A stretch of DNA of 64,000 bases from Bacteroidota bacterium (lineage in GTDB: Bacteria > Bacteroidota > Bacteroidia > 2-12-FULL-35-15): contig JBAXQU010000001.1 in the NCBI GenBank assembly GCA_037131555.1, positions 1,490-65,489 on the forward strand, written 5' to 3'. Made by a program: the position numbers and the translations under genes. Every line of letters begins with the position of its first letter. The stretch's first letter is position 1. Below, piece after piece: positions 25,443 through 50,200 of this stretch. The notes under the pieces were generated by a model. That model searched no databases and was not told the origin of the DNA. It saw only the letters and a program-made list of their open reading frames with translations.

Positions 25443-25478
25443 TTTTATTTATAATAAAATACAAATGTAAGTATTTTT

Positions 25479-26240: not shown

Positions 26241-26248
26241 TATCTTTG
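26241..26248 (+). promoter_or_regulatory. -7 promoter box TATCTTTG
   Basis: Lies in the divergent region between the repressor and the plus-strand cassette, 53 nt upstream of the ATG at 26302. Confidence 0.4.
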
Positions 26249-26270
26249 TGCCATAAAAATAAAGCACAAA
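26245..26270. promoter_or_regulatory. Candidate operator (TTTGTGC-N12-GCACAAA)
   Basis: 7-bp inverted arms that overlap the -7 box. Confidence 0.3.
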
Positions 26271-26301
26271 TATATAACTAATAATTAAATCATACGAAAA
26301 A

Positions 26302-27785: not shown

Positions 27786-27820
27786 ACGCCTTGGTCGGCT
27801 TTGTAAAAACCATATAAAAA

Positions 27821-28051
27821 ATGAAAAACGTAAGAGCAAAATTTGTGGTAAGCCACATTATTAATCATGCTGATGGAAGCATTAATGTTAATGCGCATCC
27901 TGTCCATTCAGGAAGCGAGGAGAATAAATCATTCAATGACTATACTCCATCTGGAAAATTAGAGCTTCATATTTCAAAAGGTAAAGAAGCTCAAAAACTA
28001 TTTGAACCAGGCAAGGAATATTATTTAGATTTCACATTAGTGGAAGCATAA
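27821..28051 (+). CDS. Small conserved phage-type protein of unknown function
   Basis: 76 aa (RAKFVV...ENKSFNDYTPSGKLELHIS...FEPGKEYYLDFT). I recognise this pattern from phage genomes, but it has no named function. Confidence 0.4.
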   Translation: MKNVRAKFVVSHIINHADGSINVNAHPVHSGSEENKSFNDYTPSGKLELHISKGKEAQKLFEPGKEYYLDFTLVEA

Positions 28052-28076
28052 TCAACATCCATAATTTGATAGATTT

Positions 28077-28104
28077 AAAAGTCCTGATTTTATTCAGGAC
28101 TTTT
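28077..28104. terminator. Bidirectional hairpin terminator
   Basis: aaaagtcctga-ttttat-tcaggactttt, located between convergent genes. Confidence 0.65.
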
Positions 28105-29265: not shown

Positions 29266-29351
29266 TTAAAAGTTTTTTAAAAGTTTTTGTACAAAAGTGT
29301 ACAAAAGTACAACAATTACTTACATAATGAAATTGAGCTATAAATCAGTAT

Positions 29352-30929: not shown

Positions 30930-30939
30930 TTTTTTCTTT

Positions 30940-31227
30940 TTAATTAATTCCTATTGTTAACTCATTCAGTAAACTACTGTATCTGTTTCTCCCTTGAAAT
31001 TCTGAGTTAAATTCTTCATAATCTTCAAATGGACAAGAATCATAATGATTCTCAAATACAGAGTATAGAACGAAATATAAATCTTCAAAAAGCATCAATA
31101 CAGGTTCAGAGTATTTGTTATTGGGCAGTTCAATCACGTTGTGTTCAATTAGAGTTCCTTTTAATTTGATAAGCTCTATAAATTCTGGTAGCGATAATGT
31201 CAATCGCATTAATTCTAAATAAGTCAT
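30940..31227 (-). CDS. Hypothetical protein
   Basis: ORF only, with the start taken at MTYLELMRL. Confidence 0.3.
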   Translation of the reverse strand: MTYLELMRLTLSLPEFIELIKLKGTLIEHNVIELPNNKYSEPVLMLFEDLYFVLYSVFENHYDSCPFEDYEEFNSEFQGRNRYSSLLNELTIGIN

Positions 31228-31232
31228 TTTTA

Positions 31233-31451
31233 TTATTTGTTTTTGTTGTTTATTATTTTTTTGTGGCAAATCTCTGCCAATTTGTATAGTACATTTCGGA
31301 TTAACTCTATTTCAGTATCTGTAAATTGTACACCATTTTTGTTTAATTTTTTCTTGCATTCTGTAATTGAAAGCATTGTTATCAATACCCATTTCTCATA
31401 TTTTTTTATTAGGTAGAGAATTATTCTTTTAAGGTCATAGCTAGACCCCAT
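31233..31451 (-). CDS. Hypothetical small protein
   Basis: ORF only. Confidence 0.3.
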   Translation of the reverse strand: MGSSYDLKRIILYLIKKYEKWVLITMLSITECKKKLNKNGVQFTDTEIELIRNVLYKLAEICHKKIINNKNK

Positions 31452-31650
31452 AGTTAATGTATGAACTTTAAAACCAAAAACACACTGATAACCATGACAA
31501 TAGTAGTATAAATTATACTACCAAACTAATATTTTGATTATTTGCTGAACTAATCCTTTAGGTACTCCACAGGATAGAGGTAATAGTCTTACGTAAACTA
31601 TTTTTTGTTATTCAAAGATACGAATTTTTTAAATAGGATGCAAGTATAAT

Positions 31651-31881
31651 TTAACAACCTATTTCTATAAGTAAGTCCGACACTTTAATTTCAAGAGCCT
31701 CACAAATTCTTTTAAGAACTTTCATTGAAATATTTTGCTCTCCACGCAGTATTCTCCTAATAGAACTTTCATTTATGTTGCAAACATTGGCAAACTCAAC
31801 ATTCGATTTGAATTTTACTTTTGCTTTTTTTGCAATCGCATTACCTAATTTAATAAGAAAGTCCTTATCATTTAATAACAT
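31651..31881 (-). CDS. XRE-family helix-turn-helix transcriptional regulator
   Basis: 76 aa with an HTH_3-like region (FANVCNINESSIRRILRGEQNISMKVLKRICEAL). Confidence 0.6.
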   Translation of the reverse strand: MLLNDKDFLIKLGNAIAKKAKVKFKSNVEFANVCNINESSIRRILRGEQNISMKVLKRICEALEIKVSDLLIEIGC

Positions 31882-31882
31882 T

Positions 31883-31894
31883 GGACAAATGTCC
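31883..31894. promoter_or_regulatory. Candidate operator GGACA-AA-TGTCC
   Basis: Palindrome directly upstream of the XRE gene start, in the divergent region shared with the lipoprotein gene. Confidence 0.3.
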
Positions 31895-31937
31895 GCCCAT
31901 ATTAAAAAACAATCTCGTCATATATGGCGAATAATAG

Positions 31938-31945
31938 TACCTTTG
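31938..31945 (+). promoter_or_regulatory. -7 promoter box TACCTTTG
   Basis: Lies 18 nt upstream of the ATG at 31964. Confidence 0.4.
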
Positions 31946-31963
31946 ACCAATAAATAAAAAAAC

Positions 31964-32584
31964 ATGAAAAAAACATATCCATTACTCTACCTTTTTGGGG
32001 CATTATTAGCAAGCATTACATCTTGTAAGAAAGATGATACTGAACCAACTCGTAGTCCTATCGTAGTAACACCGCCTGTAACAAGTACTGGCAGTGATAC
32101 GATGTATTTTAAAGTTACATTACCTGTAATAACCCCATCTAATATTCCATTATACGGTGATTTTAAATATACAATGTCTAATGTTCACGTTTTCATTATC
32201 CGCAAAGATTCGACAATACACGAAGCAATACCAAATCTTAGTATCATTTATGATGCTAACACTAATCTCACATTTATAAGTAATTTTGATAATACCCCCG
32301 TACCTATTTTAATGAAGGTAGGTGATGGATTATACTTAACTGTAGATTCACTGGAAACATCACCAAATTATCCAAATGGTACTAATATTTTCAAGTTCCC
32401 TTGTTTATGTATTAACAAATCAACACATACTGGTTCACTGGCAGGGTTTTTATACCAAATACCAGTGTTTCCTAATGATTTCACTAATCAAATTTACTAT
32501 GGAAATGGTAGTGATTCTTGGGGTATTGCGTATAATATATGTGTTTACCCACATATAAACACAGTTAGCTTTATAAGACCTTAA
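31964..32584 (+). CDS. Hypothetical lipoprotein (island cargo)
   Basis: Signal peptide with lipobox SITSC. No recognisable domain. Confidence 0.5.
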   Translation: MKKTYPLLYLFGALLASITSCKKDDTEPTRSPIVVTPPVTSTGSDTMYFKVTLPVITPSNIPLYGDFKYTMSNVHVFIIRKDSTIHEAIPNLSIIYDANTNLTFISNFDNTPVPILMKVGDGLYLTVDSLETSPNYPNGTNIFKFPCLCINKSTHTGSLAGFLYQIPVFPNDFTNQIYYGNGSDSWGIAYNICVYPHINTVSFIRP

Positions 32585-32743
32585 CGATACAGGATAAAGA
32601 ACCTCGTATTCCTTTAAATCAACAAACTTCGTATTGTACAGTTAAATGTGCCAAGAATAGGGTATGGTAGAAAACATACAAACTTTTTTTGCGTAAATAG
32701 TGATTATTGTGGTGTATAATTTTGCCACCTTAATAATATACAC

Positions 32744-32751
32744 TATCTTTG
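32744..32751 (+). promoter_or_regulatory. -7 promoter box TATCTTTG
   Basis: Lies 25 nt upstream of the resolvase ATG. Confidence 0.45.
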
Positions 32752-32776
32752 TACCATAATTAAAAAAACATAAACA

Positions 32777-33379
32777 ATGTCAAAAGTAAAATACATTCGC
32801 ACCTCAACCATAGAGCAGAATAATGGTCGCCAGCAAACTAATTCAAATGATTTTAAAAAACTTTACATAGATAAATGTAGCGGTTCAATTAAATTAAGTG
32901 AACGCCCACAAGGGAAAAAATTAATTAAAGACATAGAATCTGGTAACATTACTGAGGTGCATATTAATAGTATTGACCGTCTAGGGCGTAATATAATAGA
33001 CATACTAACTCAAATAGAATTTTTCACAGAACGTAAAATTAATTTGTATGTGGAAAATATCGGAATGGTTAGTATGATAGATAACAAACCTAATCCTTCT
33101 TTTAAAATGATAGTGTCCGTATTAGGTAACGTGGCTGAAATGGAGCGTACTAGTATGCTCGAAAGACAAAGACAAGGTATAGAACTAGCTAAAGCAAAAG
33201 GGACTTATACTGGTCGTTTATATGGCACAAAAATGACTGACGAGGAAACGCTACTAAAATATAAGAGAGTAGCAAAGGCATTAAAAAAAGGGGGTTCCTT
33301 GCGCCTTGCATGTGCGATGGGTGAATGTAGTTTAGGCACTGCTCAAAAAGTGCAAAGGTTATTACGTCAAGTGGCATAA
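32777..33379 (+). CDS. Small serine recombinase (resolvase/invertase family)
   Basis: 200 aa with YIRTSTIEQ (catalytic Ser), SIDRLGRN, VAEMER and a C-terminal HTH. Confidence 0.85.
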   Translation: MSKVKYIRTSTIEQNNGRQQTNSNDFKKLYIDKCSGSIKLSERPQGKKLIKDIESGNITEVHINSIDRLGRNIIDILTQIEFFTERKINLYVENIGMVSMIDNKPNPSFKMIVSVLGNVAEMERTSMLERQRQGIELAKAKGTYTGRLYGTKMTDEETLLKYKRVAKALKKGGSLRLACAMGECSLGTAQKVQRLLRQVA

Positions 33380-33418
33380 ATAATTAAAGGTCATGCCTAG
33401 CATGACCTTTAATTATTT
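33378..33418 (+). terminator. Long hairpin after the resolvase gene
   Basis: Perfect 19-bp arms (aaataattaaaggtcatgc / gcatgacctttaattattt) with a 3-nt loop. Confidence 0.55.
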
Positions 33419-33795
33419 CCCAAAAAACAAAACGCTTCTTTTACACAACCATTGTTTTCGAGGTTTTCAATGGCAAAAACACTATTTTTAAATTAAAACC
33501 ACCTCATTTTGTTTGCTAGAGTAGGTACAAATGGGAACGGTATTTTCTCTTAAAAACTCGAAAAAATATTTTTCGAGGCACATCATACCGCCACTAAAAC
33601 AAAAAATAATTTCGGATATGATAAGGTGGGTAACGCATTCCCGACAAGGTCGGGGGGGCTTATCCTAGTTGCTCTATCCGTTTTCTTATTGTTTGTATTT
33701 CCAATTCTAATTGCAGTTTTCTTAACTGCTTTTGCAGTTCTTGTCGATTTAGTGGCTCACGTTCAACATTAATTTCTAACTGCTTTACTCTAACT

Positions 33796-34005
33796 TTATC
33801 CTCTAGTGTTGTCATGGTTCATCCAGTTAATTAAATACTCTTCATCAAATAGGTCATTAAGCCTATTCTCTCTTTTTAGTAATAAGTATTCCATGTATAA
33901 ATGGTCTTCATCTGTTATCGCTTCCTCTTCATACATTCTCAAAATGTAGTTAGTTAATAGACCCTTTAGTATAGGGTTAAATTCAAAATTTGTAATTTCA
34001 ATCAT
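33796..34005 (-). CDS. Hypothetical small protein
   Basis: ORF only. Confidence 0.3.
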   Translation of the reverse strand: MIEITNFEFNPILKGLLTNYILRMYEEEAITDEDHLYMEYLLLKRENRLNDLFDEEYLINWMNHDNTRG

Positions 34006-34011
34006 CTTCTT

Positions 34012-34518
34012 TTAGTTTATAATGTTCTTTATGTTATTGTTTTCTTTCTGCATATAATTTTTCCATCCTTCAAGGTCATATATATCAGTTTCTTTATAGC
34101 TTATTCGAGAGAATCCTAATCTAAGGCTTTCAATAAGTTTTCTCTTTTGGTTGCAGTTAATGTAACAATGTAAATGGTTTTGGTGGTTAGCTTTCTTTTG
34201 TTCCACCACATAATAAATCTCTAAGTCGGTGTCATTCATATTATCATAAACAAATTTCATTACAGCATCAATATCAGCCTCACTATAATAATTACAGGGG
34301 TCTATGCTTAGTGCATAGTACTTGCTTTTTATTTTGTTCTTAGGGGTGAATTTAGGTAGTAAAAGGTGGTGTACCAACCATCTATTCACCTCATCTTTTT
34401 TAAGTAACTCAGCTGAGGTGGTCGGTTGAATGGACTTAATAATTTTCCTAATATTTCTAATACCAGTCTTATGGTACTTACTTAGTTCTTGTACTGTTAA
34501 GTACTCTTTTTCTATCAT
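34012..34518 (-). CDS. Putative HTH plus HUH-type Rep/relaxase-like protein
   Basis: 168 aa with an N-terminal HTH-like segment (LTVQELSKYHKTGIRNIRKII). It has an HLH (His-hydrophobic-His) triplet in NHLHCYINC and a downstream NYMQK (Y-x-x-K). The motif-level match is weak. Confidence 0.3.
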   Translation of the reverse strand: MIEKEYLTVQELSKYHKTGIRNIRKIIKSIQPTTSAELLKKDEVNRWLVHHLLLPKFTPKNKIKSKYYALSIDPCNYYSEADIDAVMKFVYDNMNDTDLEIYYVVEQKKANHQNHLHCYINCNQKRKLIESLRLGFSRISYKETDIYDLEGWKNYMQKENNNIKNIIN

Positions 34519-34777
34519 ATTCTTTTTCTTTTTATGTATAACAAATCTATTAGCAAGGTAAAAAAGTACCTCACTTTAGTTTGCTTATTTATATATAAGT
34601 ATCTGGGATTTTCCGAAAAGTTCCTTCGGCACGAAAATAATCTATGTAATGGCAACCAATAAAACAAGATGCCTAATAACAAGCGGTTTTGCTCTTGGTT
34701 ATCAGTTTATAAGCATTGGAAAGTTTCTTTAGGTCTTCGATAAAATGGTTCGACAACTCGATGTTAAAGGGTACTAA

Positions 34778-35014: not shown

Positions 35015-35439
35015 CAAATTGAAATATATGCACTTTCGGAAGCAAAATGTTATTCAAAAAAAGTGACATATACCATTCCGGATTACGAAATGTGCGCGTG
35101 ACTTGTTACCGAAAACATTCCGAAAACAAAACCATATCCGTAACATGTTACCGAACCTATTCTGAAAACAGAACCCTGTGCGTAACATGTTACGCGGCAC
35201 ATTCCGAAAACGAAACCATATCCGTAACTTGTTACCGAACCTATTCTGAAAACAAAACCATGTGCGTAACATGTTACGCGGCACATTCCGAAATCAGAAC
35301 CCTGTGCGTAACATGTTACACGACACATTCTGTTTCTGGAACCCTATCCGTCACTTTTTCACCTAAAAACTCTCTTTTTTCGATTCTCAAACTCATTTTA
35401 GATGAATATTTGAAAGGATATGTAGGATTTAGGATTTGA
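35015..35439 (+). repeat. 425-bp repeat element, copy 1 (conserved flanks plus internal 42-bp array)
   Basis: Colinear without indels with 46385..46809 (offset exactly 11,370 bp). The 5' flank from aaaatgttattcaaaaaaagtgacatataccattccggattacgaaat is near-identical. It also forms track ORF 35047..35439. Confidence 0.85.
35098..35361 (+). repeat. Tandem array of six 42-bp units plus a degenerate seventh, core palindrome GTAAC-(A/T)T-GTTAC
   Basis: Palindromes start at 35098, 35140, 35182, 35224, 35266 and 35308. Two unit subtypes alternate. Some units extend to the 16-bp perfect palindrome GCGTAACATGTTACGC. Confidence 0.9.
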
Positions 35440-37070: not shown

Positions 37071-37104
37071 AAAAAAACACCCCAACTAGTTTTAGTTGGG
37101 GTGA
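37071..37104 (-). terminator. Intrinsic terminator at the end of the cytochrome operon
   Basis: On the minus strand, caccccaacta-aaac-tagttggggtg is followed by ttttttt. Confidence 0.65.
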
Positions 37105-37149: not shown

Positions 37150-38076
37150 CTACCTTGTATACTTCCGTTCTTGATGGCAAGCTGGAGCGCATGAACCACC
37201 TGTTTCGGTTTGCTGAAAATTCATTCTGAATTCCCAACTTCCAAATCCTACTTTATCTCTTATCAAAGACGGGTTATTGGTTGCGTGCGGATTGTGACAT
37301 ACCATACAACTTCTGCCTTTCTCACCATGTATATGCACAAAGTGTAAATTCTTATCTCCATTTCTGAAACTAGTAGTAGTAGTTTTTTCCTTTTGAACAA
37401 GGTCCATTTCGTGGCATTCCCAACACAATGCAAACGAATCGACATTTACTGGCAAATAATTATTTACAGGGAATGCAAGGTCTAACAAACGTGGATCTTG
37501 AGATGCATGAGGATTGTGACATGTTTTTGAACAATTCTTAAATGGAGGGTGTATTGTTTTTGCTGTCCTCGCTAGCTTATCCATATCGGGTAAAGTTTTC
37601 TTTGGACTCACCACAATAGCTTTATTATGACAACTCAAACATAGGTCTTTTCTTTTTGCTATCACTAGTCCTTTTTCATCTGTCGAATGTGGCGAATGAC
37701 AATTGGTGCACGATTTTTTATCATTTATTACTTTGTGTACAAAAGGTGCGGTGGCGTATAATTTTTTGCTCGTTTCATGACAAGAAAAACATAGGTCGGG
37801 CATTGCTTGTATTAAGTTTATCGCTGTTTTCGGGTGGTCCTGACTTCCGGGAGCGTGGCAATCGGCACAACCTTTATCAGTTTTAGTAATATGTTTAATT
37901 TGTTTTTCTACCAAAGCACCATGACAATCGGTGCATTTCTTGGTAGAAGTTGAATCTGTTTTATGAGGAATAGAATCGTTCGATATGAATTCAAATCCAT
38001 AAGCGGTGTTAACGTTAACAACCATCATCGCCAACAACAGTGCGACAGAGATGATATAGAAGAGTGAGTGTTTCAT
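37150..38076 (-). CDS. Multihaem c-type cytochrome (7 CXXCH plus 2 CX3CH motifs)
   Basis: 308 aa with an N-terminal signal/anchor. Motifs are CTDCH, CADCH, CFSCH, CTNCH, CLSCH, CSKTCH, CWECH, CMVCH and CAPACH. Its start is 2 nt after the stop of the barrel gene. Confidence 0.8.
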   Translation of the reverse strand: MKHSLFYIISVALLLAMMVVNVNTAYGFEFISNDSIPHKTDSTSTKKCTDCHGALVEKQIKHITKTDKGCADCHAPGSQDHPKTAINLIQAMPDLCFSCHETSKKLYATAPFVHKVINDKKSCTNCHSPHSTDEKGLVIAKRKDLCLSCHNKAIVVSPKKTLPDMDKLARTAKTIHPPFKNCSKTCHNPHASQDPRLLDLAFPVNNYLPVNVDSFALCWECHEMDLVQKEKTTTTSFRNGDKNLHFVHIHGEKGRSCMVCHNPHATNNPSLIRDKVGFGSWEFRMNFQQTETGGSCAPACHQERKYTR

Positions 38077-38078
38077 GT

Positions 38079-40070
38079 TTAAAAGTTTCGTGTTACTTGA
38101 ATATAAATTCCTTTGAAAACTGTTTTCGTATTATTATTTTGATTAAAATAAAAGTTAGTTCCACCCGATATAAATAGTTTGCGGAATGATGTTGTCAATT
38201 CTAATTTTGCTGTATGATAATCAAGACTATTCCCTTTCATATTCATTCTTCTGTACATATAATCCAAATCAACTCTCAGATTACGGAACATTGAATAGGC
38301 TAATTTAGTATTCAAAATATAATCCTGTCTTCTTGCATTTTCATCCGTCATTTGATAGTCTATCAAATCTCCATTTATTGTAAAGGTAATTTTACTTAAC
38401 GATTTCTGGAAAGCCAAATAATATTTCATGCCTTGATAAGGAACTATTGTGCTCTTGTAATATTCATACTCTATTCCTCCTCTCATCAGTTTATATTCCA
38501 CTCTTACACCCAACACATGGCGAGTATAATAGTTAAACACTTTACTTTCGGCCACGCTAAGGTCGTTATAATTCTGACTAATAAATCGGTAATAAAAGTT
38601 TAAGATATTATTAAACAAAGCAACATTTCCTGAAAAAGAATGAACATCCAAATTAAATTTATTCGTTCCGCCTTGTGCGGCAGTATAATCTATGTATACA
38701 CTGGAGTTGTTCGGAATATTGCCACCTGGTATTCTTCTAATTTCTATATACGTTCCTTGTACATACAATTCATAATCACCTGAAGTTCCATTCCAACGTT
38801 GATAAATGAAGTTTCCTGTCACATCTTTTACAACAATAGTGTTAATATTCACGTTTGGTCGTTTCAACAAGATGACTTCATTGTCAACCAAAAAATATTG
38901 TTCTCTTACCACTATTACATCAGGACTTGTGGTTGTTATTTTCTGATACTCTTTTGCATAACTATAATTGATGTTTAATGTTCCTCTATGAATCTTTTTA
39001 GTGTAAACCAAATCAATTCCAAAACGATTTCGATGATCCTTATATGCGTCTTTTTGATTGTTTTCTGTGTAGTCATAAAACAATCTGGTTCTTAAACTCT
39101 CGAACAACTGATGAGTTAATGCTGTTTGCACCCATTGTGTATTTACCTTGTATTGATCACCATCTATTTGAGCCCAATTATAAATTCCTGTGAACACAAA
39201 GCGCCTTGGTAACACTATGTTTAAACGCTCATTATCCTGTAGCCTTTTAAATCGATAGGTACCTCTTTCGTCCGAACTAGTTAAATTAGAAGTAAGCGTA
39301 TATCTTTTTTGCTTGTCAACAGAAATATCATTTGTTAGGTCAAAATTATCAAGCGTTGTCAAATAAGTGAATGGTTGATAACCTCCAGAAGACACGCTAT
39401 CGGTTTGAGAACTCTTATTTTCTGTGTGATAATACAGCAAAGTGGTGTGGTCATGTTCAGTGAATGACCTGTTTGCACTCGCATTAAATATCTGTTGGTT
39501 AAGTCTGAAAATTCTATCCGAACCAATTGTTTGCTGTTCCAATTTATTGTTGTTGTATCCTGCTGACATTGGCAGGATCTTATTATTATAATTAGCGGTT
39601 ACCCCGTAATTCCTTGTTTTCGAACGAATCCGTGTAATATTCTCAATATTCTGCAACGTATTATTTAAATTAACAGTTGTATTAAAGTTAAATGCTTTTT
39701 TCTTTAGAAATTGGGCAGAAAAGTCTAATCCACCGCTATTGGATTTTTCGGTATAATCTGGAATTCCAATATAATTATCTCTTCTCGACTGTGGGTTATA
39801 ATCCGCATTTAACCTTACTTCACAGAAATTAGGATGTAAGAAAAAACTTTTTGTTCTTACTTGAAATAATCCATTGAAAAATGCATCGGTTTGACGAACG
39901 CTGTAATCTCCTATTGAATATTCAGACTCCCTGTAATTTCCCCTAAGTAACACTTTCCCAGAAAGGCTAGTAAGTTGCCAGAATTTAAATGCTGTCGCCT
40001 CATTTTGAGCAACAGCAATCATTCTTAACAGAACAAAACTCAACAATAATATGTATTTTCTAAATTTCAA
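38079..40070 (-). CDS. Predicted outer-membrane beta-barrel protein (porin-like partner of the cytochromes)
   Basis: 663 aa with signal peptide ...MIAVAQNE. Rich in alternating aromatic/polar residues (Y, N, T) and has a C-terminal ...VTRNF. It sits between the two 9-haem genes. Confidence 0.6.
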   Translation of the reverse strand: MKFRKYILLLSFVLLRMIAVAQNEATAFKFWQLTSLSGKVLLRGNYRESEYSIGDYSVRQTDAFFNGLFQVRTKSFFLHPNFCEVRLNADYNPQSRRDNYIGIPDYTEKSNSGGLDFSAQFLKKKAFNFNTTVNLNNTLQNIENITRIRSKTRNYGVTANYNNKILPMSAGYNNNKLEQQTIGSDRIFRLNQQIFNASANRSFTEHDHTTLLYYHTENKSSQTDSVSSGGYQPFTYLTTLDNFDLTNDISVDKQKRYTLTSNLTSSDERGTYRFKRLQDNERLNIVLPRRFVFTGIYNWAQIDGDQYKVNTQWVQTALTHQLFESLRTRLFYDYTENNQKDAYKDHRNRFGIDLVYTKKIHRGTLNINYSYAKEYQKITTTSPDVIVVREQYFLVDNEVILLKRPNVNINTIVVKDVTGNFIYQRWNGTSGDYELYVQGTYIEIRRIPGGNIPNNSSVYIDYTAAQGGTNKFNLDVHSFSGNVALFNNILNFYYRFISQNYNDLSVAESKVFNYYTRHVLGVRVEYKLMRGGIEYEYYKSTIVPYQGMKYYLAFQKSLSKITFTINGDLIDYQMTDENARRQDYILNTKLAYSMFRNLRVDLDYMYRRMNMKGNSLDYHTAKLELTTSFRKLFISGGTNFYFNQNNNTKTVFKGIYIQVTRNF

Positions 40071-40095
40071 TTTTACTTAATAAATAGTTTGAACA

Positions 40096-42216
40096 TTACT
40101 TAGTTTTCGAATTAGTTTTTTGTTTGTCAATAGCATTTGTATTTGACTCCGTTTTGGTAGCATTTAAATCGTCTAACCCCTCCAAAATATTGATTGGCCT
40201 AATGAAAGGAGAAATAAATGGTTTCGCTTTATAAATCTCCTCTTCATATATGCTTCTCGGTGCGTATGCCACTCTACCTCTCAATTCGTCTGGATTATAA
40301 ATATATGGTTTGATAAACTGAACTGAAGAGCCTGAATTTGTGCCATTCGAAATTTTCTTACTTGAGTTTGTTTCCTTGACAGAAATACCATTTGGTGTAT
40401 TGATATTCGAATTAGCCACAACATTACTATTGCTATTTTTACTTGTACTACCAATTTGATTATTATTGGAAGTTTTGTTTTTATCTTTAGCATTGGTTTC
40501 TGAATTTGAGTTCGAACCTTGCTTTGTGTTATTCGTTATAACCTTACCATTCGTGGTGTTTTTGTTGGCAGCACCATCTTGTTTAGTAATCGAGGTTTTG
40601 TTCTTATCCCCTGCACTGGTTCCAGTTGTTGAACTAGTAACTTGTTTGGCGTTGTTCGTTACAACCATTCCACTCGTTGTATTTTTGTTTGTATTACTTC
40701 CTTGATTTCTTGCTGAAGTTTTGTTCTTATCACTAGCATTAGTTTCCGAATTTGAACCTTGTTTTATGTTATTCGTTGCAACATTCCCACTTGGATTGGT
40801 TTTGCCAACTGTTCCTCCTTTGTTACTAACAGCATTCTTATTCTTATCATTTATGTTAACCGAAGTTCCTCCTGTTGTCTGTTTAGGATTTTTAGTTGCC
40901 GAAATATTGCTTGCCGAATTTTTGACACCATTACTTTGAGTTGAACCTGAATTTTTCACTTTGTCTGCATTTCCATTATTCTTGCTTCCATTTTGAAGTA
41001 TCGGATTGCCCCATTTACTATCTTTTGCTGAATTATTCAACGAAGCGATTTTATCCTTTTGTGCAGTTATGAATGCTCCATTACCTTTCTTATTACCAGT
41101 TGTATTGCTAACAGAATTAATTTTATTCACGTTATTCGGATTGGTAACATTTTTAGCAATATTTCCTCCAGCCAATTTTGTAGCATTTGTCAATTTACTA
41201 TCCTTTGAAATATTTTTAGTTGATTTAACATTTCTTAAAGAATCAACTCCTTTTTTAGAATTTACGTTTCCTATGCCATTGCCATCAATTGAACCATTTA
41301 CACCTTTAATCAAGGATAATGAATCAGGCCCAGTCTTAGAAAGTATGTTGAGCAGTGTTTTCGTTTTGTATGGTCGTATCGACTCCACTAAAATATCTTT
41401 ATCTTCACCTCCATGAGGGTTATGACATTCGGTACAATTCTTTGTTTTTGCTTTTTTATGTGTAGGAGTTTTAAATACCTGATCAGGATTATGACAGAAC
41501 AAGCATATCTGTTGTGATTCTCGAAGTAACAGTTTTTTAGATTTAACACTATGTGAAGCATGACAACCTCCACAATTTTCAGATACTACAGGGCCATGAA
41601 CAAAATTATAGCGCGAATTAAAATTCTCATGACAATTATAACATGATCCTTTTCTTAAAATTCCTGAATTATCTCCTCCATGAGGGTTATGGCAATCTGT
41701 ACAATTTCTTGTTCCAATTTTTGCATGAATACTATTTTTCAATACTTGCTTTTCTTCATGGCAATACAAACAAATTTGCTGCCCTTCCCTCATCAGTAAT
41801 TTTTCAAATTTTGCTTCATGCTGATTGTGACAAGCAATACAATTACCAGAAATAACAGGCCCATGCAATACTTGATATTTGTCTCCAAAATCGCCATGAC
41901 AAGAATAGCAGAGCTCTGGCATTGGTTTAATTAAACTGTTAGAAAAATCACCCGCATGACAGCTTTTACATTTTTCTTCCGCGTACGGCTTGTGTAAATA
42001 CGACTCTGGCTTGGTAACCACTTGCGTTAATGAGCCAAGTGTATCTTTCTTTTCAGTTTCATTAACATCTGTGTGTTTGCCTGGGTCAGGAACACCATCG
42101 AAAAAAAATGAAAGTACTCGATATTGTTTTTCTGGAGTGCAGCGTACCATAAACATTGCAAGCACTGCAATGATTAGGTAAAAACTCAGAAGTGTTTTTT
42201 TATTGGCACTCTTCAT
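40096..42216 (-). CDS. Nine-haem c-type cytochrome with a long Asn/Ser/Thr/Lys-rich tail
   Basis: 706 aa with an N-terminal signal and Cys26 (possible lipoprotein). It has nine CXXCH motifs between aa 83 and 265. A low-complexity region of about 340 aa follows, then a distinct C-terminal segment of about 75 aa. Confidence 0.8.
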   Translation of the reverse strand: MKSANKKTLLSFYLIIAVLAMFMVRCTPEKQYRVLSFFFDGVPDPGKHTDVNETEKKDTLGSLTQVVTKPESYLHKPYAEEKCKSCHAGDFSNSLIKPMPELCYSCHGDFGDKYQVLHGPVISGNCIACHNQHEAKFEKLLMREGQQICLYCHEEKQVLKNSIHAKIGTRNCTDCHNPHGGDNSGILRKGSCYNCHENFNSRYNFVHGPVVSENCGGCHASHSVKSKKLLLRESQQICLFCHNPDQVFKTPTHKKAKTKNCTECHNPHGGEDKDILVESIRPYKTKTLLNILSKTGPDSLSLIKGVNGSIDGNGIGNVNSKKGVDSLRNVKSTKNISKDSKLTNATKLAGGNIAKNVTNPNNVNKINSVSNTTGNKKGNGAFITAQKDKIASLNNSAKDSKWGNPILQNGSKNNGNADKVKNSGSTQSNGVKNSASNISATKNPKQTTGGTSVNINDKNKNAVSNKGGTVGKTNPSGNVATNNIKQGSNSETNASDKNKTSARNQGSNTNKNTTSGMVVTNNAKQVTSSTTGTSAGDKNKTSITKQDGAANKNTTNGKVITNNTKQGSNSNSETNAKDKNKTSNNNQIGSTSKNSNSNVVANSNINTPNGISVKETNSSKKISNGTNSGSSVQFIKPYIYNPDELRGRVAYAPRSIYEEEIYKAKPFISPFIRPINILEGLDDLNATKTESNTNAIDKQKTNSKTK
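40405..40878 (-). repeat. Four tandem repeats of about 120 bp (about 40 aa) within the cytochrome tail
   Basis: Peptide units ...DKNKTS...NKNTT.G.V.TNN.KQ recur four times (aa about 447-604). Confidence 0.7.
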
Positions 42217-42271
42217 ATAAAAGGTTAGCTGACAATTATAATTGAAATCATACTTTAGCTATTTGTTTGGA

Positions 42272-42279
42272 CAAAATTA
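42272..42279 (-). promoter_or_regulatory. Possible internal -7 box TAATTTTG (minus strand)
   Basis: Plus-strand caaaatta, 55 nt upstream of the ATG at 42216, within the 294-bp gap after the NHL gene. Confidence 0.3.
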
Positions 42280-42510
42280 GACGTATGGATTCAAAAAAAA
42301 TATGATTTACAGCACGTTTTTTAAATAAATTTTTCTTGCTTAATTAATTGTTAAAAATTAAAATAACTTAATGTGGTAAATTTCAAGACCGCTTATACTT
42401 TTAAAATGTGATTTGAAAAAGCGGTGCAATTCCAAACTATTCTTGAGGGATTTTGAAAAACAAATCCTATTCTCTTGAATTAAAATATAACTATTAGACC
42501 TAAGAAGATA

Positions 42511-43665
42511 CTATTTACTTGGAGAAACACCTTTTGGGTCGACTCTACCATAAACATTGATTAAGTCAGGTCCATACTGACTGGTGACAAATATTAGATA
42601 TTTCAAGTCATACGATGGGTCAACATATTTTTCGAAATACTTTTTATTATCGTAATCAATCATCACTTTCGCAGGAATAATCAAATCTCCTGGTCCTTGA
42701 TAATGACCTCCAATAACCAATAGCAACTTACCGTCTTTATTAAATATTTGAACGTGGTCGAAACCAGCATCTACTGCGTAAATATTTGATTCATGATCGA
42801 CCGCAATTCCTTTTAATTTAGAAAATTGCCCTGGACGATCACCGCGAGAACCAATGGTGTCGATAAATTTTCCATCAATCGTATATCGTTTAATCATCGA
42901 ATAACCGAAATCGGCAGCGTAAACTCTATCTCCCTCTACAGCAATATTTGCTGGGATTCCAAGAAAGGCCTTATCCGTTGGTTCAACATCTGGAAAAGAA
43001 TACAACAATTTGTTGGTTGAATCTGCACTATATACATTGATTTTACTAATAGCAGTATTCGCAACAAAAATCTTATCTTGATAGGTCACTACATCCGTTG
43101 GCTTGAACTTTTCTTTTTCCCCAAAACATTTTACATAATTTCCGTTATCATCAAACACCACTATTTCTTGACGGCCAACATCAGCCACGTATAAATACCC
43201 TTTGTCATCTACTGAACAATTTATAGGGGCTCTCAACATTCCTTTTCCTCCGGGACGAAAAAAATGAAAATCTCGAGTTTCTAAATCAATTATTTCCATT
43301 CCTCCACCATATTGGTCGCAAACATAAAGTTTACCTTTGTGAATTGAAATTCCATAAGGCTTCACCATGGCTTTTGCTTTTTCTTGTCCAAGAATTAATT
43401 TGGATAAAAAAGATTGTTTCTTTCCAAGGTCGGCAGAACTAGTAATTTTGGTTAAAAATTGTATTCGAGCTTGCTCTGGAGGAGTAGGATAAATTACAAG
43501 AGGCTTAGTATTGTCTTTTGTGTTAGCCACCTTGTTGGCATTGCACCCTGCAAAAACAAACATTGTAATAAAAGCGAAAATCCAAAAACTGTAATTAACG
43601 GAGTTTGTTGCACGAAAAAGAATTAAATTGTTTTTCATATTTTTCGAGAACAGATGATTATTCAT
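42511..43665 (-). CDS. NHL-repeat / six-bladed beta-propeller lipoprotein
   Basis: 384 aa with lipobox VFAGC. Repeated blades follow the pattern ...P.GIA.D..G.IYVAD.....I..F. An alternative start is at 43638. Confidence 0.65.
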   Translation of the reverse strand: MNNHLFSKNMKNNLILFRATNSVNYSFWIFAFITMFVFAGCNANKVANTKDNTKPLVIYPTPPEQARIQFLTKITSSADLGKKQSFLSKLILGQEKAKAMVKPYGISIHKGKLYVCDQYGGGMEIIDLETRDFHFFRPGGKGMLRAPINCSVDDKGYLYVADVGRQEIVVFDDNGNYVKCFGEKEKFKPTDVVTYQDKIFVANTAISKINVYSADSTNKLLYSFPDVEPTDKAFLGIPANIAVEGDRVYAADFGYSMIKRYTIDGKFIDTIGSRGDRPGQFSKLKGIAVDHESNIYAVDAGFDHVQIFNKDGKLLLVIGGHYQGPGDLIIPAKVMIDYDNKKYFEKYVDPSYDLKYLIFVTSQYGPDLINVYGRVDPKGVSPSK

Positions 43666-43683
43666 AATAGATTTTTTAGAGTT

Positions 43684-43715
43684 AAAAAAAAGGGCGAAAA
43701 TTTTATATTTCGCCC
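43684..43715 (-). terminator. Hairpin with T-run after the tetrahaem gene (terminator or attenuator)
   Basis: On the minus strand, gggcgaaa-tataaaat-tttcgccc is followed by tttttttt. Confidence 0.5.
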
Positions 43716-43746
43716 TCCAAAAGTATCAAATTTTTGTTGTTCTGTA

Positions 43747-44463
43747 TTATTTTTTGTGGCAAGCCAAGCAAAGTGCAGAACCTCTGTTATCCATACTTAA
43801 TTGATAACCTCTGCTATTGCTGTGTGCACCATGGCAAGAAGTACATTGTACTTTTCCTGCACCATCCAATTTTGTTGAAACCGCTCTTCCTGAAGTAATG
43901 TAACCTGATCCTGCTGCAGAGTTGAAGTTGTTGTAGATATAAGTAGGTGTATGAAGACCTCCTCCAACTGCTGAGTCATAAGGAATAGAAATTGGGTGGT
44001 CGTTACGTAAATCTGTTGACAACAAAGCTCCACCTGTTAATGGTGTACCTAAGTTTTGTCCACCGTAAGCTCCTAAAGCAATAGAACCATCATGGCAAGA
44101 TAAACATAATTTAGAAGTTCCATCCGGTGCAGTTACGCCATAACCAGTGTAAACTCCTGAAACTAAAGTACCAAAATCAAAACCAGTGTACATTTGATAT
44201 GCAGCAGTAGTAAATTGGTGATTCCACAATGGAGCGTCTGTTACAGTCAAATCTGCATTGTGTGGTGTGTGACAAGGTTGGCAAATTTGACCTCCTTGCA
44301 TTGTGGTAGCATTGTATGTGTTCCATACTTGTGTTGAAAAGTTGTGAGGTAAACCCGCAACAGTTAAAGATGATCCAGTTACCCCAGGACCAAGGGTACT
44401 TTGTGCGATGCTCATTAAAGGTATCATTAACCCTAATGCAGCTGAAATGATTAATTTTTTCAT
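43747..44463 (-). CDS. Tetrahaem c-type cytochrome, secreted
   Basis: Starts at MKKLIISAALGLMIPLMSIAQ (signal peptide). It has four CXXCH motifs (CQPCH, CLSCH, CTSCH, CLACH) and a PLWNH motif after the first haem site. Confidence 0.75.
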   Translation of the reverse strand: MKKLIISAALGLMIPLMSIAQSTLGPGVTGSSLTVAGLPHNFSTQVWNTYNATTMQGGQICQPCHTPHNADLTVTDAPLWNHQFTTAAYQMYTGFDFGTLVSGVYTGYGVTAPDGTSKLCLSCHDGSIALGAYGGQNLGTPLTGGALLSTDLRNDHPISIPYDSAVGGGLHTPTYIYNNFNSAAGSGYITSGRAVSTKLDGAGKVQCTSCHGAHSNSRGYQLSMDNRGSALCLACHKK

Positions 44464-44804: not shown

Positions 44805-46415
44805 ATGATTAAACGTTTCAGCAAAGATATAGATATTTTTTTCAATTCTTCAAAAGAAAATAAAAATATTTTTTTTAATCTATTACAACCTTTTTTATTG
44901 GTTTTCGTGTTCGTATTAACCTATATCTATATATATGACTCGAAACTGGACTTAAACGGTGACAATTTTGAGTATATCAATCTTGCTAAGTCGATGGTAC
45001 AAGGGAAAGGATATGCCTTGCCATATACTAACGATTTCCCTCCTTCCAATTGGTTTCCGCCTGGCTATTCGAGTTTACTTGCCGGCATCATGCTGATAAT
45101 GGGCACAAGCATAAGTACATTAAAAATAATGAATGGACTCTTGTTCTTGGCTGTTATACTCATTATGTATAGACTCATTATTATATTGTATACTAATAAG
45201 GCGCTTGCTTTCACTTTAGCCTTGTTGATTATTCTCAATTGTGGACTATTGAGGTTTTCCACCATCATTATGTCCGAAATTCCTTATCTTTTCTTCACAT
45301 TACTTACCTTTTATTATGTTACAAAAGTGAAAGAAGAGATTCCCTTCTATAAATCGAAGTATTTTTATGGAGTTCTTTTATCCTCGGTAGCTACTTATTA
45401 TCTAAGAAACATTGGCATTGTGCTGGTAGGAGCCATTGCCATGCATTGGTTGCTCGAAAAAAAATGGAAACAAGCGGGGGTATATATTATAGGGTTTGTG
45501 CTTTTATATCTTCCTTGGATAATTCGAAATTCGATGCTTGGGCTCCAAAGCCGTTACGTAAGCACAATGATGGCAGCGAATGCTTGGCGGCCAGAGCAAG
45601 GTGAGCTGAACACAGTTGGTAGTTTTTTAGATAAAATGTTTACCAACTTTGTTGACACCGTGATAAAGGGATTTGCTGAGGTGGTATTCCCATTTATCAA
45701 CCCTAATGAAACTCCTAGCATTTTACTCATTGGCAGTGTGGTGCTTATCCTCACTTTTATTGGTGCATGGAAATTGAATAGATACCGAACTTTGTTTTTG
45801 TTCTATCTACTTGGCAATATTGCTATCTTTCTGGTGTGGCACGAAGGTAATTCTTCGCGATATGTATGGCCACTTGCGCCTTTTCTTACCATTTGTCTTT
45901 TTGGTGGAGTGTATCAAATGATTGTTAATTTGAATGAAAAACAAAAAAAATTGGTGCCTCATTACCTTCCTTACCTATTGCTGCCATTGGCGGTATTAAA
46001 TGCTTTTGGGTTGAAACAAATACATGCCATGGCCATGGAAAAGGATTACGAACCTGCATACAGAAATTACTTTGATATGGCAGATTATGTAAAAAAACTA
46101 AACAATAACCAACTCGTGGTGGCTTGTCGGAAGCCTGGGATGTTTCATTATTTTTCGGATGGATTTGTAACTAATTATAAGGATACCGAAAGCGACCGTG
46201 AACTAATAACTGATCTTATTGACAAAAAAGTGGACTATTTAGTGCTCGAAAAACTGGGGTATAGTTCGGTGTATCGGTATCTGCGACCTGCCGTTGAAAA
46301 GAATCAGGATTTATTTCAAGTTGTGTATTTCAAGGAAAATCCGAATACTTTCCTTTTGAAGTTTGATATTGAAAAAGCAAAAATCAAATTGAAATACATA
46401 CACTTACAGAAATAA
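44805..46415 (+). CDS. GT-C fold membrane glycosyltransferase (ArnT/PMT-like, GT39/GT83-like)
   Basis: 536 aa with about 10-12 TM segments and an early periplasmic-loop acidic motif (LDLNGDNFEY). Its last codons run into the 5' flank of repeat copy 2. Confidence 0.55.
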   Translation: MIKRFSKDIDIFFNSSKENKNIFFNLLQPFLLVFVFVLTYIYIYDSKLDLNGDNFEYINLAKSMVQGKGYALPYTNDFPPSNWFPPGYSSLLAGIMLIMGTSISTLKIMNGLLFLAVILIMYRLIIILYTNKALAFTLALLIILNCGLLRFSTIIMSEIPYLFFTLLTFYYVTKVKEEIPFYKSKYFYGVLLSSVATYYLRNIGIVLVGAIAMHWLLEKKWKQAGVYIIGFVLLYLPWIIRNSMLGLQSRYVSTMMAANAWRPEQGELNTVGSFLDKMFTNFVDTVIKGFAEVVFPFINPNETPSILLIGSVVLILTFIGAWKLNRYRTLFLFYLLGNIAIFLVWHEGNSSRYVWPLAPFLTICLFGGVYQMIVNLNEKQKKLVPHYLPYLLLPLAVLNAFGLKQIHAMAMEKDYEPAYRNYFDMADYVKKLNNNQLVVACRKPGMFHYFSDGFVTNYKDTESDRELITDLIDKKVDYLVLEKLGYSSVYRYLRPAVEKNQDLFQVVYFKENPNTFLLKFDIEKAKIKLKYIHLQK

Positions 46416-46809
46416 AATGTTATTCAAAAAAAGTGACATATACCATTCCGGATTACGAAATATGCGCGTCACTTGTGACGGAGGACATTACGAAAACAAA
46501 ACCCTATCCGTCTCTTGTGACATGACACATTACGAAAACAAAACCCTATCCGTCACTTGTGACATGACACATTACGAAAACAAAACCATGTCCGTCACTT
46601 GTGACACGACACATTACGAAAACAAAACCATGTCCGTCACTTGTGACACGACACATTACGAAAACAAAACCCTATCCGTCACTTGTGACCCGACACATTC
46701 TGTTTCTGGAACCCTATCCGTCACTTTTTTACCTAAAAACGCTCATTTTTAGATTATCAAAGTCGTTTTAGAGGTATATTTTAAAGGAGAAGTAAGCTAT
46801 TAGATTTGA
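46385..46809 (+). repeat. 425-bp repeat element, copy 2
   Basis: Colinear with 35015..35439. Also forms track ORF 46417..46752. Confidence 0.85.
46468..46731 (+). repeat. Tandem array of six 42-bp units plus a degenerate seventh, core palindrome GTCAC-TT-GTGAC
   Basis: Palindromes start at 46468, 46510 (one mismatch), 46552, 46594, 46636 and 46678. Confidence 0.9.
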
Positions 46810-47253: not shown

Positions 47254-50200
47254 CTAAAAATAGGCTCTTATTTGCGCACCACCAGTATGTATCGCATTGG
47301 TTCCTGCCGATTTTCGACCATCATACGTAATGCTTATTTGCATATTGTTAGATAAATTTCGTTGATAAGCCATTCCCCAAGTGATGTTCTGCCCAGGTTT
47401 CAAGGCATCTAACATTTCGAAGGCCAAAGCAGAATTCGATTGTTTTGCATTATAACTTATTTGAATGTAATTAGCCTTCATATTAAAACTGCCTTTATTC
47501 AATACATTCCATTTCAATTCTGCTCCATAATCTTGTAGTTGAGCCTTTACCTGAAGCGAATCGGTTTCGGTACGGTTTTCCTTATTACTATATTTAAAGG
47601 AAACCGAAACTCTAAATGCTGTAGTGGGCTGGTAGTTGAGTTTTGGTTCCATTGAATAATAATCGATTTTGTAATTTCGCGCACTAAAATACTGTGACGA
47701 ATTTGACTTTGTTCCATAAATTCCATCAAAATTACAACTCATTTGTTGAATAAAATTCCATCTCACTCGAGCCTCTTCATAAGCATTCATTCGTTCTTCG
47801 TATCCATTCGTTAATAACGATTTGTTCTTTACCTCCTGATACGAAAGATCGATACCAAACAAAGGACTCAATTGGTTTATGAACAAGGTATTTCTAAACG
47901 AAGAATTGAGTGTTACCAATGTTTTAAAAGCGGTTGTAGCTGTGTCATTCTTGATAACTAAAAAAGGATTGTAAGCTCGTTCAAGAATATTATCGAACGA
48001 TTTTCTATCCACTCTATATGAAGTTTGGTTATTAAATCTTGCCACAAATTTTTTCCAACCTGTTTTGGTTGCCCATATTACCGATGGTTTCAGGTTGAGC
48101 ACTTCGCTAAATTGATTGTTATACGTTTTTATATAACTATTAGTTGGCGTAAAAACTTTGATATACGTTGCAAGACCTGGTATAGGTGCAATTTCGAATT
48201 CTCCTAATTGTTTTATTCCATCGCCATTATAGTCAATCCACTGATAAATGCCAAGTCCTGCTGTTACCTGCACATACGAATATTCTTTCTTTGCTTCTAG
48301 TCCAGAACCTATCTCATAAAACGAACTTGAGCTTATTACACCTTTTAACAATTTGAAACTATACTCCAGCCTTGCAACCAAGGAATTATCGGGCAACTGA
48401 TTGGTGAGTTTTAAATCTAAGATTTCTAATTTTCTATACGAAGCATTAATCTTTAACTGGCTATTCACATTCTTTCCAAGTTCTAAAAAAGCTCCATAAT
48501 TTCTTGCAAGTGTAGCTTGGTTAAAAGATGCATTGCCTAGTGTATCTTTTACAGCATAGTCAATTCGTTGTTTGTAATTTATTCCATATCTATTTTTGGT
48601 GGTATCTGCATTTTGGGCAAAAGCCTGCCATTCCCAGAACTTATAACTGTTCGAGAGTAAGGAATCTTTTTTACCTTTTAGCGAAAACTGATTTTGTTCG
48701 AATTCATCCTTCAAGCCAATACTCAACCATTTTATTTTCTGAGCAACACTAGACTTGTGCCTATAAAAGTTGGTATTGGTTGCGCTTGATGAAGTAAGAA
48801 AACTTCCATCGTACATCAAACTTAATCCCTTTTTCGAAACCGAAAACATCGCATTGTGTTTATTAGCGCTGTAATACATTCCTTCTTGAAAAGTATTGAA
48901 TTTGTATCCAACACTTCCAAGTCCTCGTTTTACTAACGCAACCGATGCACCAATAATATGTTGGTCGGCAAGTGTAGCAGTTGTTCCTCTATTCCAGTCG
49001 CGTTCGAACTCAATACTTCTATATCTTTCAATTGGTGAAAAATATTTTTGAACATATTCATAGTTTATGTTGCTAAGTAATTTCATTCCATGCTTCGTAC
49101 TATCTGTACTTGCTGCTTTTGATATGGACGAAACATTATCATAATTCAATTTGAGTGCATAACCTACATCATCATAACTATCGACAGTTGAGAAGGTATT
49201 TAGCACATTATTGCTCACACCAGCTTCCATTGTGAGTTTGTTGTTTTTATCAAAAACATATTCGAATCCGGCTGTAACCATTTGTTTTTTCTTTGGTGTT
49301 ATCAATTGAATCACGGGTTCATAACTTCCGTGCAATGTATCGCCATTCACACTAGGTGCAACCCATTGAAACACTTTTCCATTTGCATCAGATATTATTT
49401 GATTATAATTCCCTTTCCCGGCACCCACATTACTAAAGGTCACCCTAAAATGGGTGCTATCGACCAAACCGTTTCTTACATATACTTTTGTTGGACTGTA
49501 CACAAATACTTTTTTGTATAGATGAGTTCCAATAGTCGTATCGGTTTTGTAATACAATATTTCATTCGCATTCCAAGCTATGCTGTCAACGCTTGGTGTA
49601 ACCGCTCGCGATAAGGTATCTCCTATTTTTGAAAGCAATCGTTTGTCATCATCCGACAAAGTTTGTTGCAATGGCTGATTCTTACTGTCTTGTTCCGAAT
49701 AAATATGAAGATGAACTTTTAATTTATTTTGTTCGTAATCGTTTCCAAAATGAAGCAAAGACCGAGCATAATTTTTATCAGAATATTGAAACTCCACCAC
49801 AATGCGCTTATCCTTTGTGATGAGTTGCTTTGCAGTAAAAATAATTTCACCGGTGTTGTAATTGATGGTGTAGTCGTTTTCTTGTCCACGTTCTACCACT
49901 TTCCCATCCACATAAATTTTCTCCGAGCCTGATAGTATAATAATGTAAGGTTCGTTTTCATTTCCTTTCAAACGGTAAGGACCTTGATTTCCTTCAATGC
50001 CTTGAATCTGATTGCGACCAAATTTTCCGCGCGAAACAGCTGCACTCAATGATGTTTTATAAATACCTTGTTTACTTTTTATTTTCGAATCGGGATTGGT
50101 TTTAACTGCGGTTGAAAAACTAACACCCTGCGCCTTTTTGTTGAAATTCATAAAATATCCTGTGGGTCGTACAAGTTGAAAATCGCCAGCAATTAATTTC

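Follow-up and report, generated by a model that had tools for sequence, protein, structure and literature searches.

What do five co-oriented genes for multihaem cytochromes, a large barrel and a propeller lipoprotein do in the genome of a Bacteroidota bacterium? The genes, here called A to E, lie on the minus strand of a 64,000-nucleotide stretch of contig JBAXQU010000001.1 (positions 1,490 to 65,489, assembly GCA_037131555.1), and this whole stretch is referred to as the window. A sequence-only reading had modelled the locus on the conduits MtrCAB, PioAB and Pcc (OmaB-OmbB-OmcB), which carry electrons across the outer membrane. We find that the closest known system is the omcE nanowire cluster of Geobacter and Desulfuromonas, and not these conduits, because the tetrahaem cytochrome A is, judged by its sequence, a homologue of OmcE over its full length. 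The locus is probably the Bacteroidota version of an omcE-type cluster for extracellular electron transfer and cytochrome nanowires; the five genes most likely pass respiratory electrons across the outer membrane, and possibly into a protein nanowire. The features of the locus are the following.

Gene A, 43747-44463, minus strand: secreted tetrahaem cytochrome of 238 amino acids (aa), 4 CXXCH motifs, OmcE homologue by sequence
Hairpin and T-run after gene A, 43689-43718, minus strand: 11-bp stem with 5 GC pairs, then TTTTTAAC
Gene B, 42511-43665, minus strand: NHL six-bladed beta-propeller lipoprotein of 384 aa
Gene C, 40096-42216, minus strand: lipoprotein multihaem cytochrome of 706 aa, 9 CXXCH motifs and a long low-complexity tail
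Tail region of gene C, 40096-41300, minus strand: rich in N, S, K, T and G, fast-changing in length
Tandem repeat in the tail of gene C, 40469-40757, minus strand: 2.3 copies of 123 bp
Gene D, 38079-40070, minus strand: predicted outer-membrane beta-barrel of 663 aa
Gene E, 37150-38076, minus strand: soluble multihaem cytochrome of 308 aa, 7 CXXCH and 2 CX3CH motifs
Terminator-like hairpin after gene E, 37078-37103, minus strand: 11-bp stem with 6 GC pairs, then T7; end of the operon

All five open reading frames (ORFs) described in the sequence-only reading were recovered, and its haem-motif counts, gaps and two hairpins were reproduced. Cytochromes A, C and E together hold 22 haem sites by motif count (4 + 9 + (7 + 2)), and the intergenic gaps measure 81 (A-B), 294 (B-C), 25 (C-D) and 2 nt (D-E). 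According to Pfam and NCBIfam, A, C and E contain generic multihaem domains only, B contains NHL and DUF5128, and D has no match. No cytochrome c genes besides A, C and E are present within the window, and Rfam gives no match across 34-47.5 kb.

The conserved core of the locus

Species-representative genomes were scanned with the barrel alignment, which gave 33 loci, all of them metagenome-assembled; context look-ups of relatives were added. ORFs were called in all loci and then scored against the window proteins, and co-occurrence was counted on those barrels whose upstream sequence extends for 3.5 kb or more (n=30, the window included). The loci belong mostly to Bacteroidales, Lentimicrobiaceae and other Bacteroidota; they are also found in Calditrichaceae, Planctomycetota, Verrucomicrobiota and Lentisphaerae. 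Beside the barrel, an A-like gene is present in 30/30 loci, a B-like gene likewise in 30/30, a C-like gene in 27/30 and an E-like gene in 24/30. In every locus examined the OmcE-like and NHL genes adjoin the barrel, across several phyla and at barrel identity as low as 24%.

The invariant core is composed of the tetrahaem cytochrome, the propeller and the barrel, which co-occur obligately, and not of the cytochrome-barrel-cytochrome sandwich. The sandwich cytochromes are dispensable parts, because C is absent in 3 and E in 6 of the 30 loci. The wide phylogenetic co-occurrence of the genes agrees with the earlier grouping of the five; the tetrahaem cytochrome and the propeller had been regarded there as extras foreign to the classical modules, and that view has to be reversed. 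Dozens of unrelated contigs, with 27-45% identity between the proteins, have this gene order too, so the feature is real and its arrangement non-random. Chance clustering was rejected on the same ground.

The N-termini were compared over about 35 orthologues per protein. A, D and E possess type-I signal peptides, often cut before Gln (that of A ends in ...SIAQ), and E has no lipobox. The lipobox of B (L-x-S-C, here FAGC) is conserved among the orthologues, and in C the lipid Cys (Cys26) is followed by a conserved LSFFFDGVPDP motif. Both cysteines, already pointed out from the sequence, align with the conserved lipobox Cys, and by this conservation Cys26 is a real lipidation site.

The most divergent Bacteroidota locus (L004 1-7610) contains the OmcE-like/NHL/barrel triad without cytochromes flanking the barrel. 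Immediately beside the triad are a full set of haem-biosynthesis genes in an operon, an NHL/PKD protein of 1337 aa with a sorting domain of the type IX secretion system, and a giant cytochrome that exceeds 2000 aa.

Relation to the omcE clusters

A phmmer search of all PDB sequences with A returned two matches. The first is 7tfs_A, the OmcE filament subunit of Geobacter sulfurreducens (E=2.4e-21, residues 31-238 against 22-232 of the 232-aa chain), whose sequence is 98% identical to a protein in the G. sulfurreducens genome; the second is 9yuq_N (E=1e-15), from an entry of 16 chains which we take to be the D. soudanensis OmcE bundle structure. With BLASTP, A matches G. sulfurreducens OmcE at 2e-25. 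H40, H68, H156, H214 and the four CXXCH motifs show no variation when A is aligned with 38 OmcE homologues; these 20 positions are likewise fully conserved (100%) across 36 cassette members and OmcE. With its 238 aa A falls in the size range of OmcE-type subunits, about 210-240 aa, and it shares with OmcE a similar length and the C-terminus CxxCHKK (CxxCHxK in the alignment with the 38 homologues). These sequence traits make A a candidate filament subunit.

The gene order of the G. sulfurreducens locus is purHDE, a ppcA-like gene, resB, ccsB, two multihaem cytochromes (370 and 330 aa), the NHL lipoprotein, OmcE, a 752-aa family-less protein and glycosyltransferases, which fits the omcE region as given in 10.1101/2025.10.22.684050. 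There, a minimal omcE cluster is said to encode OmcE itself, a pair of multihaem cytochromes, a pair of beta-propeller lipoproteins and a large beta-barrel 'putatively functioning as a secretion or anchor'; GT2, GT4, GT39 and TPR genes often trail it. The locus tag of omcE is GSU0618, and gsu0615-0617 make up an operon (PMC13194489, PMC1829397). Petersen et al. (10.1101/2025.10.22.684050) regard an OmcE homologue beside a large barrel and a beta-propeller lipoprotein as the mark of an OmcE that forms nanowires; OmcE homologue, barrel and propeller lipoprotein are all found in the window locus.

E and the Geobacter 370-aa cytochrome match end to end (1e-47 to 2e-48, 32% identity, BLASTP), the C-terminal CX3CH (GGxCxxxCH) included. 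We believe this cytochrome to be GSU0615, and the genes of the Geobacter omcE cluster to be GSU0615-0619. B matches the NHL lipoprotein adjoining omcE at 3e-28 to 4e-29 over 294 aa (BLASTP), and the alignment takes in an N-terminal, pre-propeller motif, YPxPPExxRIxxL; in PDB, B resembles the NHL domains of TRIM proteins. C gives generic matches only (1e-16 to 1e-22) with either cytochrome of the Geobacter cluster, and is not clearly orthologous to the 330-aa one. By sequence, three of the five window genes (A, B and E) are homologous to omcE-cluster genes and the barrel is analogous at best.

The likeness therefore comprises a homologous tetrahaem cytochrome with all eight His ligands, a homologous propeller lipoprotein, two multihaem cytochromes alongside (here E and C, of which E is homologous to the 370-aa cytochrome), an adjacent very large family-less barrel, GT-C/TPR glycosylation-type genes nearby and a subunit gene that is transcriptionally set apart. 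The differences lie in the barrel (663 aa here, 752 aa in Geobacter, unrelated in sequence), in the gene order, in an extra MtrA-like lipoprotein cytochrome, C, with its FFFDGVP motif and 365-aa tail, in the single propeller and in the Bacteroidota host; moreover, filaments are known for Geobacter OmcE, whereas the window system is known from its genes. What is new is thus the barrel family, the extra lipoprotein cytochrome and the phyla, while the subunit, the propeller and one cytochrome are as in the omcE cluster.

In most relatives of the window locus a second propeller is paired with a 12-haem protein of about 560 aa (for example L001 1360-4118 and L037 11046-13858). The N-terminal 205 aa or so of the 12-haem protein are OmcE-like (2e-39 against Geobacter OmcE, closer than gene A), and the extra propeller matches the Geobacter propeller at 1e-39 to 4e-47, closer than B. 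Related loci also adjoin ResB/CcsA genes or a haem-biosynthesis operon, which supports the omcE-type assignment; a histidine kinase with a sigma-54 regulator is a further neighbour. OmcE-like paralogues of about 220 aa with 5 CXXCH motifs are encoded at L022 14241-14900, L025 13646-14314 and L032 3984-4652, and match the '5-heme OmcE-like' proteins proposed by Petersen et al. as a possible new nanowire family.

Concerning taxonomy, omcE clusters are known in Thermodesulfobacteriota, Pseudomonadota, Aquificota, Campylobacterota and Nitrospirota (10.1101/2025.10.22.684050); of these five listed phyla none is Bacteroidota or belongs to the Planctomycetes-Verrucomicrobia-Chlamydiae (PVC) group. 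We found no literature report of an OmcE/propeller/barrel cassette in Bacteroidota. The surprise that the sequence-only reading expressed at such conduits in gliding, Flavobacteriia-like bacteria with a type IX secretion system is smaller than stated there, because comparable modules have been reported: Trout Bog genomes of Bacteroidetes and Verrucomicrobia with 'novel PCCs' (PMC6344600, PMC5615132), NHL and multihaem modules (10.1101/2022.05.06.490989) and a Lentimicrobium genome with a giant porin-cytochrome cluster, in 2026 (PMC13013709). Clusters with OmcE-like cytochromes are also described in Verrucomicrobiota and Acidobacteriota (10.64898/2026.05.27.727921).

Barrel, proposed electron path and rival explanations

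D was modelled with AlphaFold2 from an alignment of 58 homologues. The model (predicted local distance difference test, pLDDT, 88.1) has about 28-30 long strands; D also has a signal peptide and a C-terminal Phe, and the earlier description of the 663-aa protein as a beta-barrel is thereby sustained. Since the modelled barrel begins at residue 29, D is predicted to have no N-terminal plug. Between strands ~18 and ~19 the series is broken by an insert of about 70 aa (residues ~395-465), and it is this insert, not the barrel wall, that is the most conserved part of the family (VVKDxTG...YIEIxRIPGG...IDYTA). The insert has no Pfam match even at E<=10; a cytochrome or the propeller might dock there. 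Sequence searches of D gave no match in Pfam, NCBIfam or PDB; a profile search of PDB with the barrel alignment returned noise only and did not find MtrB. With Foldseek, D matches only generic big barrels of PDB (TonB receptors, MtrB) at template-modelling scores (TM-scores) of 0.2-0.39, the highest being that of MtrB; these fold matches say nothing on family membership.

By sequence D belongs to a large unnamed barrel family. An exhaustive search with a hidden Markov model found 2356 representatives (clusters at 50% identity) with E<=1e-3, and 928 with E<=1e-30; isolate names suggest that most of the 2356 derive from uncultured anaerobes living in lakes, groundwater and wastewater plants. The barrel of MtrB has 26 strands; the predicted 28-30 strands of D exceed this and would give space for a cytochrome rod. 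On the model, D is a candidate conduit sheath and/or a candidate pore for subunit export or anchoring.

The 9 CXXCH motifs of C all lie inside residues 83-265, and its N-terminal 300 aa match MtrA (PDB 6r2q_A) at E=5e-20. The orthologues usually have 5 haems and about 190 aa, a size similar to that of ExtC, ExtD and ExtF. The tail of about 365 aa is disordered (20% N, 14% S, 13% K, 11% T and 10% G), and the total length of C varies among close relatives, from 706 aa here to 787-788 aa in a relative with 87% barrel identity; one long-tailed C-type gene of a relative is at L040 223-2586, and the orthologue in L005 has no tail. E matches MtrA at 2e-5, and it is the only protein with a Pfam MtrC/MtrF-domain match above cut-off, which is partial. 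On TIGR03508 (DmsE family) C scores 82 and E 68 bits, with a cut-off of 192; by sequence both are relatives within the MtrA/DmsE superfamily that fall outside the curated family threshold. E is assigned to the periplasm by its L002 orthologue, a fusion with a peptidoglycan-binding OmpA domain. The topology signals (C a lipoprotein, E soluble, D with a type-I signal peptide) fit a conduit.

The functional class put forward by the sequence-only reading, a cytochrome and barrel locus for outer-membrane electron transfer, is upheld by the synteny, the MtrA-like C and E and the giant, predictedly plug-less D. The models it chose, Mtr and Pcc, are to be replaced by the omcE cluster. The architecture, with a soluble periplasmic cytochrome, a large barrel and a lipoprotein cytochrome side by side, matches that of Geobacter Pcc and Ext, as an architectural match only; the window barrel is larger (~28-30 strands) and Pcc/Ext have no OmcE-like and NHL partners. 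The likeness to MtrCAB, MtoAB and PioAB lies in C and E, which are in the same broad decahaem MtrA/DmsE superfamily though under the curated threshold, and in the TM-score of D, which among solved barrels is highest for MtrB; however, D has no MtrB-family sequence signal and the locus contains no outer decahaem cytochrome of the MtrC/OmcA type.

A plain porin-cytochrome conduit that forms no filament is the alternative which survives best, although we consider it rather unlikely. E, D and C would cross the membrane, A would act as a monomeric shuttle (secreted or periplasmic) or as a terminal reductase at the surface, and B would be a structural stabiliser, as proposed for the NHL proteins of Desulfovibrio ferrophilus and Tenderia. 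The tight gaps of 25 and 2 nt in the sandwich, the MtrA-like C and E, the lipoprotein/soluble split resembling Geobacter Pcc and the AlphaFold2 model of A, which lends a filament no support, all speak for it. So do the NHL and cytochrome modules without demonstrated filaments, which are common. NHL and multihaem modules have been noted in Tenderia (10.1101/2022.05.06.490989), Gallionella (PMC9900912) and D. ferrophilus (PMC9769857), and in G. metallireducens through Gmet_0556, as cited in 10.1101/2022.05.06.490989. By description, the Uet cluster of 'Ca. Tenderia electrophaga' (10.1101/2022.05.06.490989) resembles the locus in its tetrahaem cytochrome, NHL protein, larger multihaem cytochromes and predicted 28-strand barrel, and differs in a prolyl isomerase, three trihaem c7 cytochromes, a cupredoxin and an undecahaem cytochrome, none of which is near the window locus. 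DFE_0448-0451 and DFE_0461-0465 of D. ferrophilus, likened in the same way, include tetrahaem cytochromes, NHL propeller(s) and larger multihaem cytochromes, but no porin-cytochrome conduit genes are apparent in that genome. A plain conduit leaves the dispensability of the sandwich cytochromes unexplained, whereas the invariant triad of OmcE-like protein, propeller and barrel fits the published signature of nanowire clusters and A retains every OmcE haem ligand, the N-terminal His included.

Very improbable, in our judgement, is a periplasmic or outer-membrane redox enzyme complex, in which the NHL propeller would be catalytic or substrate-binding and fed by the cytochromes, as in propeller-containing anammox or scytonemin-type systems, and the barrel would move the substrate. 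Beta-propellers can be catalytic, B scores 115 bits on the ScyF NHL model and the conserved insert of D has no assigned role; that score, however, is far under the 350-bit cut-off, B matches the propeller of the Geobacter omcE cluster, and all haem sites of the cytochromes look bis-His, of the electron-transfer type. The motif scan found no CXXCK in the cluster cytochromes and no other catalytic haem motif, in agreement with the earlier statement that signatures of the NrfA/HAO type are lacking; an enzyme of that type was rejected on synteny and motif grounds. Finally, that D is a nutrient-uptake or general porin placed among cytochrome genes by chance is hardly credible: no family was matched by D and TonB-dependent receptors lead its fold matches, but, where such receptors have an N-terminal plug and a 22-strand barrel, D shows no plug, no TonB box and no Pfam match, its TM-scores are about 0.3, no nutrient-uptake family was found for it, and the OmcE-like and NHL neighbours in every locus effectively refute the idea.

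Several points weigh against the assignment to an omcE-type nanowire cluster that we prefer. The barrel D has no BLAST match with the 752-aa Geobacter barrel; the hhalign probability is 0.1% when a profile is set against the single sequence and 4.7% between two profiles, and hmmsearch between the D family and the Geobacter-type barrel (a profile of 37 sequences) finds nothing in either direction. Because the barrels have no sequence homology, the key component for secretion or anchoring is only analogous to that of Geobacter. The AlphaFold2 model of A, built with the 38 OmcE homologues, reaches a pLDDT of only 39. The 64-kb window contains neither a second NHL propeller gene, of which published minimal omcE clusters have two, nor the propeller/12-haem OmcE-fusion pair of most relatives, nor genes for an inner-membrane quinol dehydrogenase or for cytochrome maturation. 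All matches are hypothetical proteins and the genome matches are all metagenome-assembled, so that the family is known from sequence alone; OmcE-like tetrahaem proteins are widespread, and the polymerisation of A cannot be deduced from such data. Even in Geobacter the physiological role of OmcE filaments is disputed (PMC13194489).

Under the omcE-type reading, all five products, whose signal peptides are seen, would be exported by Sec and the cytochromes would receive haem in the periplasm. E, as a soluble 9-haem MtrA-like rod, and C, as a lipoprotein MtrA-like cytochrome, would both join barrel D and form a haem path over the outer membrane, with B as an assembly or anchoring scaffold at its inner face. 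A would pass or dock at the barrel and polymerise on the surface as a tetrahaem filament, or at least form the extracellular terminus, and a filament would deliver electrons to acceptors that are insoluble or of high molecular weight, for example Fe(III), humic substances or partner cells. Electron flow is assumed here to be outward, and either direction is possible. The strong hairpin after A, possibly an attenuating terminator, may shift the balance of transcripts towards the subunit, whose gene would then be expressed well above the accessory genes. Filament formation by A in particular is a possibility that we lean slightly against. With similar reserve we propose, as a tentative generalisation, that fermentative, anaerobic Bacteroidota, together with members of Calditrichaceae, Planctomycetota, Verrucomicrobiota and Lentisphaerae, may build OmcE-type nanowires through an unrecognised family of barrels with 28-30 strands and a 70-aa insert, unrelated in sequence to the Geobacter barrel, which would serve both as the sheath of an MtrA-like conduit and as the pore for filament export or anchoring.

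To our knowledge, the solved structures of cytochrome nanowires come only from two archaea and a few Desulfuromonadia. If the proposal is true, such nanowires would extend to the Fibrobacteres-Chlorobi-Bacteroidetes (FCB) and PVC superphyla and to abundant anaerobes of lakes, groundwater and wastewater. If functional, the locus would mean that long-range or trans-outer-membrane electron transfer is common in Bacteroidota usually seen as fermenters, with a bearing on the cycling of iron, humic substances and methane. A second, sequence-unrelated barrel with the same subunit and propeller offers a comparative handle on the question of how filaments are exported and anchored.

Flanking sequence

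Genes of glycosylation type are present on the other side of gene A.

PMT (GT39-type) polytopic membrane glycosyltransferase-like gene, 44805-46415, plus strand: divergent from gene A; Pfam PMT 1.9e-4, under the family cut-off
Two genes for TMTC_DUF1736 and TPR proteins, 54575-56521 and 57584-59365, plus strand: 10 kb away

The association is weak, and the PMT-like gene is a possible accessory to the cluster. In L005 two TPR/TMTC proteins are encoded directly upstream of the cassette, and the Geobacter omcE locus has a TMTC-like 500-aa protein among GT2 and GT4 genes. These neighbours hint that the cytochromes are glycosylated, a modification reported for Geobacter OmcE.

An element of about 400 bp occurs in two direct copies that are 85% identical, at 35015-35400 and 46385-46770. 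Within each, a 42-bp unit is repeated in tandem about 5.5 times; its palindromic core is GTAACATGTTAC in one and GTCACTTGTGAC in the other. The element has no Rfam match and is absent from 40 fetched loci. Its two copies exactly bracket an 11-kb segment with the cytochrome cluster, DUF493, a 10-blade propeller gene and the PMT-like gene, and they could be protein-binding arrays or the edges of a mobile or recombining segment.

Further out, a tyrosine integrase, two serine recombinase/resolvase genes and an S24 peptidase-like repressor at ~25000-34600 suggest an integrated mobile element adjoining the locus; in the relative with 87% barrel identity, the 10-blade gene is followed by valyl-tRNA synthetase instead. 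A 1195-aa protein (47254-50841, minus strand) with a signal peptide, a C-terminal Phe and no significant family match is possibly a second outer-membrane barrel of very large size.

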